Positions 7,139 to 61,704 of a DNA stretch of 64,000 nucleotides are shown here, one piece after another. The notes beneath the pieces are model-generated. The model saw nothing but the letters and a program-made list of their open reading frames with translations. It made no database searches and had not been told where the DNA came from. The first letter of the stretch is position 1; every line of letters starts with the position of its first letter. Origin of the DNA: Acidimicrobiia bacterium (GTDB lineage: Bacteria; Actinomycetota; Acidimicrobiia; Spongiisociales; UBA5794); assembly GCA_026985095.1 (NCBI GenBank), contig JALSQW010000056.1:7144-71143 (forward strand), in the 5' to 3' direction. Both the position numbers and the translations under genes were made by a program.

Positions 7139-7198
7139 GAATGCCGGGGGACTGTCGCGGGCTTGACAGGATCGTCATCGAAGTGAGCGGGAGGGACG

Positions 7199-34731: not shown

Positions 34732-35373
34732 TCAGGGCTCCAGTCCCACCGGGCACGACACCCCCGTGCCGCCGATCCCGCAGTAGCCGTTCGGGTTCTT
34801 CGCCAGGTACTGCTGGTGGTATTCCTCGGCGTAGTAGAACGGCCCTGCACGAGCGATCTCGGTCGTGATCGGACCGTAACCAGCCGCGGTGAGCTGTGCC
34901 TGGTACAGGACCTTCGACCGTTCGGCGGCGTCGCGTTGGGCCTCCGACGTCCAGTAGATGGCCGAGCGGTACTGGGTGCCGACGTCGTTGCCCTGCCGCA
35001 TGCCCTGCGTCGGATCGTGGTTCTCCCAGAACGTCGTCAGGAGCTGCTCGTAGGAGATCCGCTCGGGATCGAACACGACCAGCACGACCTCGGCGTGGCC
35101 GGTGCGGCCCGAGCACGTGTCCTCGTAGGTCGGGTTCGCCGTGGTCCCTCCTGCGTAGCCGACCGCGGTCGCTTCCACCCCGGGGAGCTCCCAGAAGATG
35201 CGTTCGGCACCCCAGAAACAGCCCATCCCGAAGATCGCCCGCTCCGAGCCCTCCGGGAAGGGCGGGACGATCGGACGGCCGCTCACGAAATGGACGCCCG
35301 AGATCTCCATCGGACGGTCACGGTCCGGCAGGGCTCGCCCTCCGGCTTCCTGGTTCTTCCGTCGGTTCCACAT
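34732..35373 (-). CDS. msrA: peptide-methionine (S)-S-oxide reductase
   Basis: GCFWG active-site motif with C-terminal Cys residues. Full-length MsrA similarity. Confidence 0.9.
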
Positions 35374-35380
35374 GGTCCGC

Positions 35381-36190
35381 TCAACGCTCACGGCACGGAT
35401 CGTGTTCCGGGCCGGCCAGCCAGCGGAGGATCTCCTCGGCGACCGTCTCCCACCGGGCGCCGAGCATGAGATCGTGGCCGGCACCGTCGACGATGAGCGG
35501 TTCGGTCCCGTACGCCCGAGCCGTGGCCGCCACTTCGCCGGTCGTGAAGATCGCGTCCTCGCTGCCGCCGATCACCAGCATCGGCGATCGCACCAGTCGG
35601 GTCCGGACCGGAACGAACATCCCCAGGTACGCCGTGTACGACTCGTCCTGCAGCCGGTCGAGGTACCGGCCGGCGAGGTCGTCGGGCATGTCCGGATCGA
35701 ACAACAACCGGGCAGCCCGTGCGCGGTCCTCGACGATCGGCCACATCGACCACGTCGCGGTCGCCTTGGCGAGGGCGGCCGGATGACGCGCGCCGATCCG
35801 GATCGACGCCGCCGCCACGCCCCGATGGGGCACGGGGGCCAGGAGCACCCCCGGGCCGCCGCGCCGGCGTGCCAGATAGCGTTGCACGAGGTAGCCGCCC
35901 ATGGAGTGGCCCACCAGGACGGTCGTGCGGGGGAGCGCGGCCAGGGCGCGGTGGATGTCGGACAGATAGTCCCCGATCGTCACCCTGCGCAGGTCCGGTC
36001 TCGGGCCGGGGGGCGTCCCGTCTCCGTGGAAACGCAGGTCGATGGCGTAGGCGTCGTGGCCGGCGTCTGCGAACCGGTCGAGGAAGTGCTCCGCCCAACA
36101 CCACGATCCATGCCAGGCTCCATGGACGAACAGGACCGGGCATCGTCCGGCCGGATCGGCCTTGCGGGAGACGATCGTCGCGTCGCTCAC
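35381..36190 (-). CDS. alpha/beta hydrolase
   Basis: HG oxyanion hole (LFVHGAWHG). Nucleophile elbow GHSMGG. Start set at a GTG after the terminator hairpin. Confidence 0.7.
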
Positions 36191-47930: not shown

Positions 47931-48010
47931 GGTCTCCTCCCGCCCAGGAGGGTACCGGGGGCGCGTCCCCGGACGCGGAGCGACCCCCGTTCCCGGGGGT
48001 CGCTCCATGC

Positions 48011-48365
48011 GGCGAGTCCGTCGGTAAGCCGGATTCTGTCGTGGGCGATCATCTATCTGGGGCCGACGTTGCCGCCGACCTCGATGCGGCCTACCCGGGA
48101 CGTGACGGGCGGGCCACCCTGTCCCTGTTCGGCCTTGCTCCGGATGGGGTTTGCCGAGCCGTCCCGGTCGCCCGGGACGCTGGTGGTCTCTTACACCACC
48201 GTTTCACCCTTGCCTGTGCCCGTTGCCGGGCCATCGGCGGTCTGCTCTCTGTTGCACTTTCCGTCGGGTCACCCCGCCTGGGCGTTACCCAGCATCCTGC
48301 CCTGTGGAGTCCGGACTTTCCTCGACCGGGGTCGCCCGGCCGCGATCGCCTCGCGAACTCGCCTC
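48011..48365 (-). ncRNA. rnpB: RNase P RNA, bacterial type A
   Basis: The minus strand reads GAGGAAAGUCCGGACUCCACAGGGCAGGAUGCUGGGUAACGCCCAGG...AGUGCAACAGAGAGCA...GGGUGAAACGGUG...GUAAGAGACCAC...AAACCCCAUCCGGAGCAAG...ACAGAAUCCGGCUUA. These are the universally conserved P4, CR-II, CR-III and CR-V blocks. The ends are approximate. Confidence 0.85.
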
Positions 48366-52682: not shown

Positions 52683-53051
52683 TCAGGCGCCGTCGTCGAG
52701 CAGACGGGCGATCCCGCCGCCGACCGACCCCAGGATCGCCGCGATGAGCCCGAGGATGATCAGCTCGATGGTCGTGGGACCCGCCGTGGCGGCGATCGAG
52801 ACGATGCCGATGACCAGGAACATGGCGATCCCGGCCAGACCGCCATGAGCCATGGGGGCCCGATGGCCGAAGCGACCGGCGACGAACCCGCCGACGACCA
52901 AGGCGCCGAACTGCACGAGGATCAACGGGATCGGGTTGCTCGTCGGCCCCGTCACCCCGACCACCCCGAGGACGACGAACGCCACGATCCCGACGAACAG
53001 GCCGGTCATCGCCCCGAGGGCGACCGCTCCCCAGTTGGCGGCTCTCAGCAT
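52683..53051 (-). CDS. small integral membrane protein
   Basis: 122 aa from MLRAANWG with 4 predicted TM helices. Confidence 0.4.
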   Translation of the reverse strand: MLRAANWGAVALGAMTGLFVGIVAFVVLGVVGVTGPTSNPIPLILVQFGALVVGGFVAGRFGHRAPMAHGGLAGIAMFLVIGIVSIAATAGPTTIELIILGLIAAILGSVGGGIARLLDDGA

Positions 53052-53076
53052 GGGCTCCGGTCGCCGGGACCCGGCG

Positions 53077-53478
53077 TCACGATGACGCCGAGAGGTGCTC
53101 TTCGAGGCCGGCGATCCATCCGGCGGGGAGTTCCCAATGCCGGGAACCGGCGAGCATGATCCCCACATACCGACTCGACGGCGGATGCGTGGCGGCCTCC
53201 CCGTCGTACACATGGGTCACCACCTCGTGGCGGCGACCCATGCGGTCCATGGCCTCGACGACCCGCGGGACGCGCTGTTCGGCCCTCTCGGCCTCGTGGA
53301 GGCCGTCGATCTCACCGTCGGGAACGTCGAAGACGGCTCCCCACACCGTGTGGCCCTCGGCGTCGATGACCGTCGGCAAGCCGCCGCTCCATCCGTTGCC
53401 TCGGATCGGGAACGAGATCCCCCGGTCGGGGAGGTGCGCGATGAACTGGAAGACCGCTCCGGGCGCGGCCTCGGCCAT
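53077..53478 (-). CDS. gamma-glutamylcyclotransferase (AIG2/GGCT-like) family protein
   Basis: 133 aa. The fold pattern is consistent with the GGCT family, but the canonical YGSL motif is degenerate. Confidence 0.45.
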   Translation of the reverse strand: MAEAAPGAVFQFIAHLPDRGISFPIRGNGWSGGLPTVIDAEGHTVWGAVFDVPDGEIDGLHEAERAEQRVPRVVEAMDRMGRRHEVVTHVYDGEAATHPPSSRYVGIMLAGSRHWELPAGWIAGLEEHLSASS

Positions 53479-53643
53479 CTTGGCGGGCGCGATCCGAGCG
53501 GTGTAGGCGAAGTACAGCAGAGCCGCCTCCCTCCTGATTCAAGGTTCCGGGAACAGCGGTCGATGAGTGTAGCGAGGACCGCGGCGGGAACCCAGCGGCG
53601 CCAGGGAACGTCATATAGGAGAACAACGACCGTGGAGTGGGCG

Positions 53644-57063: not shown

Positions 57064-58767
57064 TCAGCCACCGGGATCGCCGTTGGAGCGGTCGACCGTG
57101 TGGGCGGCCAGGCGCCACAGGAAGGTCCGGGGCGCTCCGACGTCGAGGTCGTCGACGGCGACGATCACCGCGCCGTGCCCGGAGGTCGCCGACGTCGGTA
57201 CGCCAGGGGAGAGCTCGGTGACGGTGGCCGTGTCCGAGGAGATCGTCACCGCCAGGTTCGTCGAGGAAGGGTCGCTCCGAAGGATGTCGAGGAGGGCGTC
57301 CAAGGCGCGGAAGGAGATCGTGACCGACCTCGACGGATCGTCCGGATCCGTGAGGGAGATCGAGGCTCGGTCGAGATCGGCGGCATCGGGCAGGAGATCC
57401 CCGTACGCTCGGGGCCGGAAGGAGCTGCCATCGGGCGGGGTGACCACCAGCGCATCGCCGTCGAGGGCGACGACCGTCCCGTTGTCGGTCGCGATCGCGG
57501 CCGAAGGAGGCGGGAGCTCATCGGGGATCGTCGACAACACGACGGCGATGGTGTCCGCGGTGAGTGTCGAGGCCTGAGGGAACCAGCTCGGCGAGGGGAC
57601 GTCCATCTCGGCGATGGGAACCCACTCGTCGCCAGGGAAGCCGCGTTCGATGCGCGCTCGACCGTCGCCGACGTCGGACATCCGCAGGATGGAGCCGTCC
57701 TCGAGCAGCAGCGGGCTCGATGGGAGGAGGGACCGCTCCCACGATTCGGCGTCCAGCGAGGTGGCGACGATCGGCGAGGTTTCTCCGTCCCCGGCGGCGA
57801 CGAGCATCGGCTCGCCGGTGGCCGGGTCGATGCGCTCGGCGAACTGCAGGTTCCAGCGGGGGAGCCGGTCGGCGTCGAGGATCCGGTCGCCGACGAACAG
57901 GGTGCGCCGGACCGTCTCGACGGTCACCATCCCGGGGAGCCGTCGCGGGTCGATGCCCAGGGACGACGGTTCGAAGCGGGCGATGGTCCCCACGAGGGGG
58001 TAGCCGATCGCGATGTCGTCGCCCACGAGGTCGATCCAGGCGAGAGGATGATCGATGAGGAACCTCCGGGCCGGCTCCGGAAGGCGTGGGTACGCGAGCG
58101 CGGCGACCGACGGGACCGTCGCGGTGGCCACCACGAGCTCCCCTCGAAAGGACCCGACGCCGCTCACTCGTCGCACCTCGTCGTCTCCCAGGCCGCCGCG
58201 GGGGAGCGGCGACATCGACCAGGTGCCTCCGTCGGCGGCCCAGACCTCGATGGTCTCTTGGATCGTGCCAGGGGACCGCCTGGCGACCAGCACCCATGCT
58301 CTCTCGCCGGTGGTGACCAAGCCGACGACCCGGCCGGGACCGTCGCCGAGGACCGTCGGGTCGGACCATCTCAGGCCGTCGGTCGAGGTCCGGACGGTCA
58401 CCTCGCCACTGCCCGGGACCGGGGGCGCCGGTGCGGCGAGGATGAAGCCCTGATCGGAGCGCGCCACCACCCCCGCAGGTGCATCGATGACGGCCGCACG
58501 CGTCCACGGGGCTGTCGCGTCGGCGACGGGTACCACCTCGGTGGGTGTGGTGCCTCGCGGCCCGGTGGCCGGCTCGGCGATCTCGGTCGAAACGGTCGAA
58601 GCCGCCGGCGTCGGCGGGTCGGATGAGCGCGTGACGACGAGGGCCACCATGGCCAGGACCACGACCGCCCCGGCGACGGCGATCGACCAGCCGGGTGGCC
58701 CGGGCGGTCGCGCCGCATGTTCGGGTGGATGCTCGCGGATGCTCAAGGGGGTCTCCCTGATGGTCAT
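57064..58767 (-). CDS. membrane-anchored extracytoplasmic protein of unknown function (567 aa)
   Basis: A single N-terminal TM helix (WSIAVAGAVVVLAMVALVV) followed by a large extracytoplasmic region. It shares a strand with the ABC pair. Confidence 0.5.
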   Translation of the reverse strand: MTIRETPLSIREHPPEHAARPPGPPGWSIAVAGAVVVLAMVALVVTRSSDPPTPAASTVSTEIAEPATGPRGTTPTEVVPVADATAPWTRAAVIDAPAGVVARSDQGFILAAPAPPVPGSGEVTVRTSTDGLRWSDPTVLGDGPGRVVGLVTTGERAWVLVARRSPGTIQETIEVWAADGGTWSMSPLPRGGLGDDEVRRVSGVGSFRGELVVATATVPSVAALAYPRLPEPARRFLIDHPLAWIDLVGDDIAIGYPLVGTIARFEPSSLGIDPRRLPGMVTVETVRRTLFVGDRILDADRLPRWNLQFAERIDPATGEPMLVAAGDGETSPIVATSLDAESWERSLLPSSPLLLEDGSILRMSDVGDGRARIERGFPGDEWVPIAEMDVPSPSWFPQASTLTADTIAVVLSTIPDELPPPSAAIATDNGTVVALDGDALVVTPPDGSSFRPRAYGDLLPDAADLDRASISLTDPDDPSRSVTISFRALDALLDILRSDPSSTNLAVTISSDTATVTELSPGVPTSATSGHGAVIVAVDDLDVGAPRTFLWRLAAHTVDRSNGDPGG

Positions 58768-58808
58768 CGTATCGGGGCGCCGCGCGTGGTGACGTCGGTC
58801 GTCTACGC

Positions 58809-59873
58809 TTGCCGGCCATGACGGACTTCGACTGGCCGGGAACCCTGCAGACCCTCGTCGAGCGGGGAGCGATCGACCGCTATCGGGCACGGGCCGCGAT
58901 GGCCGAGATCATGGCCGGACGCGCCACCGAGGCGCAGGTGGCCGCCTTCGTCATCGGTCTCAGGGCCAAGGGAGAGACGGCCGAGGAGATGGCGGGGATG
59001 GTCGACGCCATGATGGAAGCGGCCGTCACCGTCGAGATCCCAGGTCCGGTCGTCGACATCGTCGGGACGGGAGGGGACCGGTCCGGGACGTTCAACATCT
59101 CCACCACGGCGGCGCTCATCGCCGCCGGAGCAGGCGCCAAGGTCGCCAAGCATGGCAACCGAGCCGCGTCGTCGAAGGCCGGCTCGGCCGATCTCGTCGA
59201 AGCCCTGGGGATCTCGCTCGATCTGCCGCCCGAAGCAACCGTCCAGATGATCCAGGAGACCGGCTTCGGCTTCTTCTTCGCTCCCCGATACCACCCGGCG
59301 ATGAGACACGCCGGGCCTGCCCGCGGCTCGATGGGGATCCGCACCGTCTTCAACTTCCTGGGACCGCTGTGCAACCCGGCTCGGGCCCGCAGGATGGCGG
59401 TCGGGACTTCGGATCCCGCCATGGCCGAGCTGATGATCGAGACCCTCGCCGATCGCGGCGCCGAGTACGGGTTCGTGTTCTACGGCGAAGACGGCCTCGA
59501 CGAGCTGACCACCACCGGCCCGTCGTTCATCTACCGTCTCCGCGCCGGGGAGATCACCCACGCCCAGTTCACCCCGGAGGACTTCGGGGTGGCGAGGGCG
59601 TCGCTGGCCGACCTGAAGGGCGGCGATGTGGAGGCGAACGTGGCGATCACCCGGGCCATCCTCGCCGGCGAGCGAGGCCCGAAGCGGGACATCGCCATGG
59701 TCAACGCCGCTCCCGCCATCGTCGTGGCCGGACTGGCCGACGGGTTCGCCGAGGCCATGACCCTGGCCGAGCAGGCGATCGACTCGGGAGACGCCGCCGC
59801 CGCGCTGGAGGCGGCGGTGACGTTGTCCCGGGAGCTCTCCAACCAGGCCGAGCGGGAGGAAACGTCCCGCTAG
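58809..59873 (+). CDS. trpD: anthranilate phosphoribosyltransferase
   Basis: GTGGD motif and KHGNRAASS signature. Confidence 0.9.
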   Translation: MPAMTDFDWPGTLQTLVERGAIDRYRARAAMAEIMAGRATEAQVAAFVIGLRAKGETAEEMAGMVDAMMEAAVTVEIPGPVVDIVGTGGDRSGTFNISTTAALIAAGAGAKVAKHGNRAASSKAGSADLVEALGISLDLPPEATVQMIQETGFGFFFAPRYHPAMRHAGPARGSMGIRTVFNFLGPLCNPARARRMAVGTSDPAMAELMIETLADRGAEYGFVFYGEDGLDELTTTGPSFIYRLRAGEITHAQFTPEDFGVARASLADLKGGDVEANVAITRAILAGERGPKRDIAMVNAAPAIVVAGLADGFAEAMTLAEQAIDSGDAAAALEAAVTLSRELSNQAEREETSR

Positions 59874-59891: not shown

Positions 59892-60494
59892 GTGCCGTGG
59901 ATGCGGAAACCGCTGATGCTCGTGGCGACCCTCGTGATCGTGGCTGCCGCCTGCGCTGGTGGGACGGCGGGGGACACGCCCTCCTCGACGTCGATCGCAT
60001 CGTCGCCGGCCACCTCCACGACCGCTCCTACGCCATCGTCGACGTCGTCGACCACGGTGTCCGATGGCGATGCTCCGGCTCCCGACGGCCCGACGGCGCC
60101 GGACTTCACCCTCGCCCTCGCCGACGGTGGGACGTTCGTCCTGTCCCAGGAGCCCAAGCCCGTCTACCTGATCTTCTGGGCCGAGTGGTGAAGCATCTGT
60201 CGACGGGAGTTGCCCGTCGTCGATGCCATCGCCCCCGACTACGAGGGTGAGATCACGTTCGTGGCCATCGCCGGGAGGTCGACCCTCGACAAGACGACAC
60301 CGGCCGCCGGCGAGCTGCTCTCGAACCTGCCGTGGGGTCTCGATGATTCGATCTGGGAGCTGTACGGCATCCCCGGTCAGCCTGCTTCGGTGTTGATCAC
60401 CGGGAACGACATCGTCGTCGACGGGTGGTTCGGCGCTCTGCCCGAAGACGAGATCCGAGCCGCCCTCGATCAGCTCGTCGCCTACGGCGCCTGA
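59892..60494 (+). CDS. TlpA/ResA-family thiol-disulfide oxidoreductase lipoprotein with an in-frame TGA at the first redox position (W-TGA-S-I-C): candidate selenoprotein, or a Cys-to-stop pseudogene
   Basis: One reading frame runs from the lipoprotein signal (lipobox VAAAC) through FWAEW-[TGA 60189..60191]-SICRRE into a complete thioredoxin-fold C-terminal half (WELYGIPGQPASVLI). The ORF track splits this into 59892..60191 and 60210..60494. Confidence 0.55.
60201..60219 (+). promoter_or_regulatory. candidate bacterial SECIS-like hairpin (cgacggg-agttg-cccgtcg) starting 10 nt after the in-frame TGA
   Basis: A 7-bp perfect stem with a 5-nt loop containing GU, at the spacing expected for bacterial SECIS elements. 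Confidence 0.35.
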
Positions 60495-61201
60495 GTCTCC
60501 ACCGCGGGGGGACGGGCCCGTCCACGCCTCGCGGCGGCGACGGCCAGTGCTCCGCCCGCGACGATCGCGGCGGCGTAGAACCAGACCGGGCCACCTCCCA
60601 GGGATGGTCGAAGCGGCTCGGTGACGAGACGAACCGCACCGGCGACGGCGATCGCGACGGCGGTCGGCATCCCGGGGATGGGCCGCCGGTAGGCCTTCCA
60701 CCACGCCAAGGCCACAGCCGCCGTCAGGTAGGCGAGCGCGGCGTACAGCTCGACGGGATGGCGGGTCACGGCGCTGCCGGGTTGCGCCCATGCCCACGGG
60801 AGGTCCGTCGCGCTTCCCAGACATGCCCCGCTCCTGAAGAGGCAACCGGCCTGCCATCCGGCCAGGCCGGCCAGGGCGGCGGCGGCGATGGCATCGGCGG
60901 CCACGACCGGTTGGCGGCGGAACGACCACAGGAACACCGCTACGGCGATGAGGCTCGCGCCCACGGTGGAGACCCCCGAGCGGACGATGATGATGTCGCC
61001 GGGGTTCGTCAGGGGATTGACGCCGTTGAGGAGCATCGTCACGATCCGTCCCCCGAAGATCCCGGCTACGGCAGCGAACAGCGCGGTGTCCCACAGGCTG
61101 CCCGCGCAGCGATCCGCGTTGCCCTCTTTGGCTTCCCACCACAGCATGGCCCACGACCCGAACGCTCCCAGGGCGGCCGCGGCGAGCAGGGTGAACTCCA
61201 T
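60482..61201 (-). CDS. lgt: prolipoprotein diacylglyceryl transferase-like membrane protein
   Basis: 239 aa. Lgt-like blocks are present: FGGRIVTMLLNG, GVSTVGASLIAVAV, HPVELYAALAYL. ATGA overlap with the upstream tlpA paralog. The assignment is moderately confident. Confidence 0.5.
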   Translation of the reverse strand: MEFTLLAAAALGAFGSWAMLWWEAKEGNADRCAGSLWDTALFAAVAGIFGGRIVTMLLNGVNPLTNPGDIIIVRSGVSTVGASLIAVAVFLWSFRRQPVVAADAIAAAALAGLAGWQAGCLFRSGACLGSATDLPWAWAQPGSAVTRHPVELYAALAYLTAAVALAWWKAYRRPIPGMPTAVAIAVAGAVRLVTEPLRPSLGGGPVWFYAAAIVAGGALAVAAARRGRARPPAVETQAP

Positions 61202-61704
61202 CAGCCCGACGCCAACAGCTCGTCGATCTGGAGCGCCAACGTGCGTTCGTCGATGACGCCGATGTGGATCTCTCGGAGGACGCCGCCGGCCTCGTAGAAG
61301 AAGGTGATGGGGATCCCCGGTCCGGCGCCGAGATCGGCGGGGATGCGTCCGTCGGGATCGGCGTAGTGCTCGATCGGCGCATCGGGGTAGAACTCGGCGA
61401 TGAAGGCCCTGGCGTTGTCCTGGCTGTCCTGGATGTTGAGGCCGACGAACCGTACCCGCCCCTCGAGGTCGGTCGCCGCGCTCGACAGGAGGGGCGCCTC
61501 GGAGCGACATGGGATGCACCACGATGCCCAGACGTTGAGCACGACGGGAAGGTCCGACGCCGTGACCAGGTCGTTCATCTCGGCGGTGGTGACGACCGGC
61601 AGCTCGGGGACGTCGTCGACGGAGACGCCCCGCGACGTGCCTCCGGCACAGGCCGCCGCCATGAGCGACACGGCGACGGCGACGACGGTGAGGCGGGTAC
61701 GCAC
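61201..61704 (-). CDS. TlpA family thiol-disulfide oxidoreductase lipoprotein (Cys version, WCIPC)
   Basis: Lipobox MAAAC. VLNVWASWCIPCRSEAP active site. Confidence 0.8.
   Translation of the reverse strand: MRTRLTVVAVAVSLMAAACAGGTSRGVSVDDVPELPVVTTAEMNDLVTASDLPVVLNVWASWCIPCRSEAPLLSSAATDLEGRVRFVGLNIQDSQDNARAFIAEFYPDAPIEHYADPDGRIPADLGAGPGIPITFFYEAGGVLREIHIGVIDERTLALQIDELLASG

Follow-up and report, generated by a model that had tools for sequence, protein, structure and literature searches.

A conserved in-frame UGA codon and its downstream hairpin in a TlpA-like lipoprotein gene of Acidimicrobiia: a probable selenocysteine-containing thiol-disulfide oxidoreductase

The 64,000-nucleotide (nt) stretch of DNA analysed here, referred to throughout as the window, is positions 7,144 to 71,143 of contig JALSQW010000056.1 from an Acidimicrobiia bacterium (assembly GCA_026985095.1), and it includes a gene for a thioredoxin-fold lipoprotein of the TlpA/ResA type that is broken at its active site by a single TGA codon. 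The locus raises the question of whether this codon is a genuine stop, the scar of a recent mutation, a stop that is read through by near-cognate decoding, or a codon for selenocysteine (Sec), the last being the proposal of an earlier note on this DNA. Comparison with related loci establishes that evolution has kept the TGA as a sense codon for the first residue of the redox motif U-S-I-C, that the approximately 100 codons past it are translated, and that an RNA stem-loop 10 nt past the UGA is under selection of its own. From this comparative evidence the gene is predicted, with a probability of about 0.92, to encode a Sec-containing, membrane-anchored thiol-disulfide oxidoreductase of the TlpA/ResA/DsbE/DsbF type.

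The TGA codon and its maintenance

The frame at 59892..60494 contains one internal stop, TGA 60189..60191, which lies in the context FWAEW-TGA-SIC-RRELPVVD. The listing of open reading frames (ORFs) cuts the gene at this point into pieces of 99 and 94 amino acids (aa). The features of the gene and of its predicted product are as follows.

59892..60494, + strand: predicted selenoprotein gene for a TlpA/ResA/DsbE-like lipoprotein with a thioredoxin fold, 200 codons and a stop
GTG 59892 or ATG 59901, + strand: start codon options of the selenoprotein gene
59901..59954, + strand: putative lipoprotein signal peptide MRKPLMLVATLVIVAAA-C, from reading of the sequence
59952..59954, + strand: TGC codon of the lipobox Cys21
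59955..60095, + strand: low-complexity linker rich in Ser, Thr, Pro and Ala between lipid anchor and redox domain, from the translation
60189..60191, + strand: UGA, predicted Sec residue 100, the attacking residue of U-S-I-C, aligned with Cys in homologues
60198..60200, + strand: TGT codon of the resolving Cys103 of UxxC, an invariant column in the homologue alignment

With Cys in place of the stop, the translation scores above the gathering thresholds of three Pfam families: AhpC-TSA (31.8 bits, cut-off 26), Thioredoxin (28.8, cut-off 23.5) and Redoxin (27.0, cut-off 26.6). The nearest solved structures are Mycobacterium tuberculosis DsbF (3ios) and MPT53/DsbE (1lu4), the Streptococcus pneumoniae thioredoxin-family proteins 4evm and 4hqs, and ResA, with sequence matches in the PDB at E = 1.9e-11 to 8e-8, and the W-C/U-x-x-C active site of these proteins is present as WAEW-U-S-I-C. 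A Cys residue after a hydrophobic stretch is found in most homologues that have an N-terminus. Of 225 distinct Sec forms, 208 contain the signal-plus-lipobox pattern, which is a pattern match and not the output of a trained predictor, and the linker differs in length and sequence between homologues. The frame, its redoxin-fold matches and its lipobox bear out the single-frame TlpA/ResA-type lipoprotein described in the earlier note, as well as the placement of TGA at the N-terminal Cys of the CxxC motif and the retention of the resolving Cys.

A protein search revealed 27 close full-length homologues (40-60% identity) that align end to end with the selenoprotein, and in all 27 the residue aligned to TGA is Cys, within the motif FWAEWC(P/G)xC. 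Taken alone, this pairing would also fit a pseudogene, that is, a Cys-type gene inactivated by a recent TGC/TGT-to-TGA mutation or seemingly interrupted by a sequencing error, given that TGA is one substitution from either Cys codon and that gene callers would split such a gene. The DNA of other organisms argues strongly against this explanation. A scan for the TGA form used the pattern TTY TGG GCN GAR TGG TGA N6 TGY N6 GAR N3 CC, which holds about 23 base-equivalents of information and by our own estimate would be matched by chance about 0.02 times in 596 Gb. The pattern matched more than 120 stretches in species-representative genomes and more than 120 in metagenome contigs, both figures being lower bounds; the family counts given here cover 240 loci among the matches listed (120 from genomes and 120 from metagenomes) plus the window, whose own genome is not among the 240.

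TGA occupies the same codon in at least 252 instances, which come from the window and from 240 independent contigs, and among the matches listed the encoded proteins are 26-94% identical (median 54%) to that of the window. In 223 of the 225 frames that are not cut by a contig end the frame remains open for at least 97 codons past the TGA, mostly for 97-107 codons, and the downstream sequence continues the thioredoxin fold. The nearest relative among the matches listed, on contig JALVQZ010000214.1, likewise has TGA and shares 87% nt identity with the window over 3.6 kb and 94% aa identity in the protein. For the part of the gene past the TGA, comparison of these two sequences gives a nonsynonymous rate (dN) of 0.025 and a synonymous rate (dS) of 0.34 (dN/dS 0.074), and comparison with seven more distant relatives gives dN/dS values of 0.22-0.36. 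The recurrence of the TGA, the intact downstream frame and the dN/dS values together mean that a pseudogene cannot account for the gene. The orthologues with Cys throughout and the relaxed downstream selection that the earlier note had named as grounds for refutation are therefore not what is seen, and the recent inactivation that it kept as its alternative has a negligible probability.

The TGA form is widespread in Acidimicrobiia, and closed chromosomes of the class, such as OZ244034.1, OZ246890.1 and OY282370.1, are among its carriers. The titles of the 120 genome loci name Acidimicrobiia, Acidimicrobiales, Acidimicrobiaceae or Candidatus Spongiisociaceae, a family within Acidimicrobiia, in 79 cases; 16 give Actinomycetota with no lower rank, 17 are unclassified and 8 bear other names. 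The earlier note remarked that selenoproteins of this kind are uncommon in high-GC actinobacteria; for this class that is not the case. Seven contigs (L027, L051, L055, L073, L088, L090 and L096) are titled as Acidobacteria, Gammaproteobacteria or Kiloniellales metagenome-assembled genomes (MAGs) despite an Acidimicrobiia-type gene, and these off-class titles are probably binning or labelling errors.

Two or three TGA paralogues stand in tandem at L072 (OZ241841.1, 3540..6008) and also at L036, L038, L045 and L077. Candidatus Spongiisociaceae is the source of several of these loci, and closed chromosomes carry L072 and L077; the arrangement points to local expansion of the selenoprotein. With regard to other candidates in coding-like frames, 33 further matches to UxxC/CxxU or to TGA plus hairpin in the window and the loci resemble the ends of ordinary genes or out-of-frame noise, which leaves this gene as the sole candidate in the window that looks real. 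At two sites, L069 near 2380 (+ strand) and L089 near 4305 (- strand), the peptide ALIEASNGGG is followed by TGA, x-x-C and a hairpin, and these are probably an ordinary gene end because conservation between the two does not extend downstream.

The RNA hairpin downstream of the TGA

The earlier note had also pointed to a GC-rich hairpin at 60201..60219 as a candidate selenocysteine insertion sequence (SECIS) element. Two nested features are distinguished at this position.

60201..60219, + strand: putative SECIS core, a 7-base-pair stem CGACGGG/CCCGUCG with apical loop AGUUG (60208..60212), encoding R-R-E-L-P-V-V
60193..60226, + strand: putative extended SECIS helix, GCAUC 60193..60197 paired with GAUGC 60222..60226, plus G60199-C60221, in the RNAfold minimum free energy structure

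The hairpin begins at the 10th nt past the TGA and its loop begins 17 nt past the UGA. The 65-nt hairpin region has a predicted folding energy of -31.6 kcal/mol (z = -3.6), a stability that one in a set of 200 dinucleotide shuffles equals. Of the extended helix, the family keeps only the pairs at +10/+32 (paired in 85% of cases) and +8/+33 (74%), and the lower pairs vary. Since the hairpin lies inside the codons for C-R-R-E-L-P-V-V-D, conservation of the amino acids confounds that of the RNA, and three tests were used to separate the two signals.

The first test is codon usage, for which the rest of the same 248 genes served as background. The codons favoured at the hairpin are exactly those that preserve the stem pairing and the AGUUG loop: CGA for Arg+4 (64% at the hairpin, 13% in the background), CGG for Arg+5 (99% against 37%), TTG for Leu+7 (82%, plus 9% TTA, against 13% TTG), CCC for Pro+8 (88% against 34%) and GTC or GTT for Val+9 (94% against 54%), with CTG for Leu+7 falling from 34% in the background to less than 1%. 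The second test is covariation. In an alignment of 150 sequences 92.3% of cells are paired, and compensatory cells, in which both sides have changed, number 78 where 19.8 are expected, a value that none of 500 shuffles reached; sliding the structure by 1-3 columns reduces the paired fraction to just 39-70%. Pair +13/+29 is GC in 151 sequences, AU in 43, GU in 11 and CG in 10, pair +14/+28 is AU in 140, GU in 52 and GC in 17, and replacement of Arg+4 by Gln (CAA or CAG) tends to go with a change from GTC to GTT at Val+9. Among the 228 distinct Sec-form sequences, 182 have AGUUG as their loop.

The third test is the fate of the hairpin where TGA is replaced by a Cys codon. Six or seven of the seven stem pairs are kept in 206 of the 228 Sec forms, and 2-6 of the seven are kept in the seven Cys-form genes for which DNA was available, even where the peptide is RRELPVV, which these Cys forms encode by CGC, CTC, CCG and GTG. 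The hairpin has also decayed in Cys forms from the Sec gene's own type of neighbourhood. RNA folding, codon bias, covariation and decay in Cys forms uphold the hairpin of the earlier note. In the window the hairpin is complete (seven of seven pairs, loop AGUUG) and is built partly from rare codons (CGA, 13% of Arg; TTG, 13% of Leu), a further argument against inactivation of this copy.

The hairpin loop contains a possible start codon, TTG 60210, and the two halves of the gene both appear as ORFs. The UGA might on that account be a true stop in a scheme of programmed termination that yields two products, a lipoprotein stub of 99 aa and, from TTG 60210, a C-terminal ORF of 94 aa. Neither half would be a complete thioredoxin fold, the CxxC helix would be divided between them, the downstream piece is without a signal peptide, and the homologues are single polypeptides; TTG 60210 is conserved because it is part of the hairpin loop. 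Programmed termination is thus extremely unlikely.

The structure agrees with the bacterial SECIS criterion of a stable stem-loop directly past the UGA with a small apical loop that contains G. Like canonical bacterial SECIS elements of the Escherichia coli fdhF type, it stands directly 3′ of the UGA within the coding sequence and has a small apical loop with G followed by U. The distance from UGA to loop in the bSECISearch consensus is reportedly 16-37 nt, a range that includes the 17 nt of the window hairpin. In contrast to the canonical elements, this family has a loop sequence (AGUUG) and a GC-rich 7-base-pair stem of its own, both bound to the encoded peptide R-R-E-L-P-V-V.

Selenocysteine decoding and relation to known selenoproteins

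Several results weigh against decoding of the UGA as Sec. No Rfam family matches the hairpin, either over the whole window at gathering thresholds or over 60100..60320 in a permissive search, an absence to be expected given how sparsely Rfam covers bacterial SECIS elements; the only weak matches, to the FMN and sR10 families, were dismissed as chance. ARAGORN detected no tRNA-Sec in the 64-kb window or in the fetched loci (roughly 1.5 Mb), and tblastn with approximate E. coli SelA, SelB and SelD queries found nothing at E < 1e-3 in the window and the 240 loci, a result that covers those sequences and says nothing on the rest of the genome. Acidimicrobium ferrooxidans, an Acidimicrobiia isolate, is recorded as being without the Sec trait in PMC5029168. 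With regard to the remainder of the window, Pfam searches of 30 further ORFs gave no selenium-related gene, and the RNA genes found were one tRNA (Val) and the RNase P RNA.

The Sec machinery of the window's organism can be inferred only from its lineage. According to Tables S1 and S2 of Peng et al. 2016 (PMC5029168), Ilumatobacter coccineus, Ilumatobacter nonamiensis and Candidatus Microthrix parvicella are positive for SelD, SelA and SelB and have 15, 10 and 7 selenoproteins, respectively. Genes for selA, selB, selC and selD were reported in all 84 complete Actinomarina genomes (2026 preprint, bioRxiv 10.64898/2026.04.03.716425). Many high-GC actinobacteria have the Sec trait (PMC5029168, as tabulated in Table S1), mostly with one selenoprotein each; Ilumatobacter, the cultivable relative, is selenoprotein-rich by comparison (Table S2 of the same source).

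Failure to detect Sec machinery in the window or the fetched loci leaves some room for UGA being read as a near-cognate Trp or Cys codon, or under stimulation by the hairpin, with no Sec machinery involved, and downstream hairpins can stimulate stop-codon read-through in general. Read-through of this kind would not explain why UGA stands precisely in place of the catalytic Cys of CxxC, which is the standard Sec/Cys signature, nor would a Trp at the attacking position be compatible with redox activity, which it would abolish. The hairpin agrees with bacterial SECIS criteria (as in PMC1088965) and is nearly invariant in position and loop, and Acidimicrobiia with SelA, SelB, SelD and 7-15 selenoproteins are documented in the tables cited above. 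Read-through by other means is accordingly considered very unlikely, and decoding as Sec is the preferred explanation.

In the proposed mechanism of recoding, the hairpin would act as a bacterial SECIS during translation, binding SelB-GTP with Sec-tRNA(Sec) and delivering the latter to the UGA in competition with release factor 2 (RF2). The protein would then be exported, lipidated at Cys21 and held by its Ser/Thr/Pro linker on the outer face of the membrane, where, on the model of the related Cys-type families, it would most likely be an extracytoplasmic thiol-disulfide reductase. The selenolate of Sec100 may attack substrate disulfides or sulfenates to form a selenenylsulfide that Cys103 would resolve, and the oxidised U-C pair would be re-reduced by a putative membrane electron shuttle of the CcdA/DsbD type.

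TlpA-like or thiol-disulfide UxxC selenoproteins are established predicted families, examples being the 'Thiol:disulfide interchange protein' and the 'DsbG-like'/Rcas_1661 (seleno)lipoprotein (PMC13188914, Table 1; PMC1088965; PMC5029168, Table S3). A 'thiol-disulfide isomerase-like' selenoprotein was described for the first time in the metagenome of the Sargasso Sea (Zhang, Fomenko and Gladyshev 2005, PMC1088965), and the family is listed again in Table 1 of a 2026 review (PMC13188914) and in Table S3 of Peng et al. 2016, where the tabulated entry comprises three organisms and five proteins; as a guess, these would fit Ilumatobacter and Microthrix. The 2005 family and the Acidimicrobiia family have in common a TlpA-like thioredoxin fold, Sec as the first residue of UxxC, Cys-containing homologues and a SECIS just past the UGA, a comparison that extends to name, UxxC motif and cd02966 assignment only (example MGB1650493.1). 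Published members of the 2005 family amount to a handful, whereas the Acidimicrobiia family counts over 240 members with TGA and keeps a conserved place adjacent to trpD.

Two NCBIfam models, NF041054 (ResA-like WAxxUGC) and NF041057 (Rcas_1661 family thioredoxin-like (seleno)lipoprotein, 'DsbG-like'), likewise describe exported or lipid-anchored Sec-containing ResA/thioredoxin-like proteins with a motif of the W-A-x-x-U type. The selenoprotein scores 24.4 bits against NF041054 (cut-off 300) and 17.3 bits against NF041057 (cut-off 190) and is therefore a member of neither, and its motif is WAEW-U-x-x-C, unlike the UGC of NF041054. Its best NCBIfam match is ResA, at 42.8 bits and below the cut-off of 170. 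The Cys-type proteins DsbF, MPT53/DsbE, Bacillus subtilis ResA and S. pneumoniae 4evm and 4hqs share its fold and active-site position; these use Cys and have low identity to the window protein, which has Sec and a putative SECIS within the codons of the active-site helix.

The selenoprotein belongs to a kind that has already been described, and perhaps to a family that is already listed. No dedicated NCBIfam or Rfam model exists for an Acidimicrobiia selenolipoprotein family. A bolder and rather doubtful reading is that the family is an undescribed, Acidimicrobiia-wide one in which Sec is prevalent and possibly ancestral, the SECIS is set within R-R-E-L-P-V-V, and in one subfamily the gene works as part of a fixed extracytoplasmic unit, together with an Lgt paralogue dedicated to it and a TlpA partner of the Cys type. 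Were this true, the family would be a tractable case of a selenoenzyme that is exported and anchored by lipid, and as a marker it could guide the correction of gene calls in hundreds of MAGs.

The current understanding of Sec decoding is left unchanged by this gene, which will not surprise specialists. With it, the extracytoplasmic selenoproteins of bacteria gain a UxxC redoxin that is exported and anchored by lipid. Nearly all that is known of this class comes from metagenomes, and there the conserved TGA with its AGUUG hairpin can serve as a simple mark of Sec decoding at the DNA level. No TGA-split fragment of a Sec form is among the 64 proteins that the protein search gave. This result, together with the splitting of the gene in the ORF listing and the presence of Cys in all 27 close homologues, makes it likely that the same mis-annotation affects many Acidimicrobiia MAGs.

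Neighbouring genes and cysteine-containing forms

Three genes adjoin the selenoprotein gene or belong to the cluster next to it.

58809..59873, + strand: trpD, anthranilate phosphoribosyltransferase, by Pfam Glycos_transf_3 plus Glycos_trans_3N
60482..61201, - strand: Lgt-like membrane protein, 239 aa, by Pfam LGT PF01790 (72.8 bits, cut-off 24.9, E = 3.6e-20)
61201..61704, - strand: Cys paralogue, DsbE/TlpA-like lipoprotein with WASWCIPC, by Pfam and NCBIfam

The end of trpD and the start of the selenoprotein gene are separated by 18 nt on the same strand, and among the 241 sources, made up of the window and the 240 loci, 115 show a TrpD homologue adjoining the Sec gene. The Lgt-like protein scores at most 38.9 bits against the NCBIfam Lgt equivalogs, whose cut-offs are 118.9-428, and by its Pfam match is a paralogue within the LGT family. 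The adjacent Cys paralogue and Lgt-like gene that the earlier note had remarked on recur beside the Sec gene elsewhere, the Lgt-like gene in 60 fetched loci and a Cys paralogue with WASWCxPCRSEAPL in about 50, counts that are to be read in light of the many fetched loci too short to show neighbours. The selenoprotein and Lgt-like genes are convergent, and their 3′-ends overlap by 13 nt (60482..60494) without an intergenic terminator region. The stop codon TGA of the Cys paralogue and the start codon ATG of the Lgt-like gene overlap as TGATG (61199..61203, - strand), and these two genes, which recur as a pair in about 50 related loci, are therefore probably translationally coupled.

Cys forms of the selenoprotein also occur in this setting. 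The Cys form P0001 is preceded by Pyr_redox_2, PocR/HTH_17, AIG2_2, WhiB and TrpD, an order that the window matches upstream of its Sec gene except that WhiB was not identified there, and the Cys form P0002 has an LGT gene downstream. These shared neighbours show that Sec and Cys alternate in one gene neighbourhood, the switching that the earlier note had suggested looking for among orthologues, and the locus therefore lends itself to studying, in a natural setting, under what conditions Sec is favoured over Cys. The Cys-form pattern had no matches in viral contigs.

A second Cys subfamily, the 'VAPAWKS' type (P0009, P0010, P0012, P0023 and P0027), is located elsewhere, with neighbours that include MIP, AIG2_2, DUF4440 and PAF-AH. 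The loci of P0012, P0023 and P0027 (L247, L249 and L253 are such VAPAWKS loci, which adjoin DUF4440 and/or PAF-AH) have a second TlpA-like gene and ccmH, and that of P0027 (L253) also has ccmF, which hints at a link between this branch and system I cytochrome c maturation. Because this related subfamily adjoins ccmH/ccmF and a second TlpA-like gene, maturation of cytochrome c or of copper centres is one candidate role, a speculative one, for the selenoprotein. The window contains the DUF3792 and AIG2_2 genes of the VAPAWKS neighbourhood (52683..53538, - strand) and no FWAEWC gene at that position.

A 608-aa ORF at 57064..58890 (- strand), directly upstream of trpD, has a coding-like GC content at third codon positions of 0.86 and no Pfam match. 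At 34732..35571 (- strand), 25 kb from the selenoprotein gene, the window encodes a peptide methionine sulfoxide reductase, MsrA (PF01625, E = 2.4e-65), in a stop-to-stop frame that begins some 110 codons before the domain. In S. pneumoniae, thioredoxin-like lipoproteins have extracellular Msr enzymes as clients; no link between the window MsrA and the selenoprotein is claimed. The RNase P RNA of the window, of bacterial class A (277 bits), lies at 48009..48361 (- strand), 12 kb from the Sec gene, and rnpB is found within a few kb of the Sec-TlpA gene in 62 of the fetched loci.

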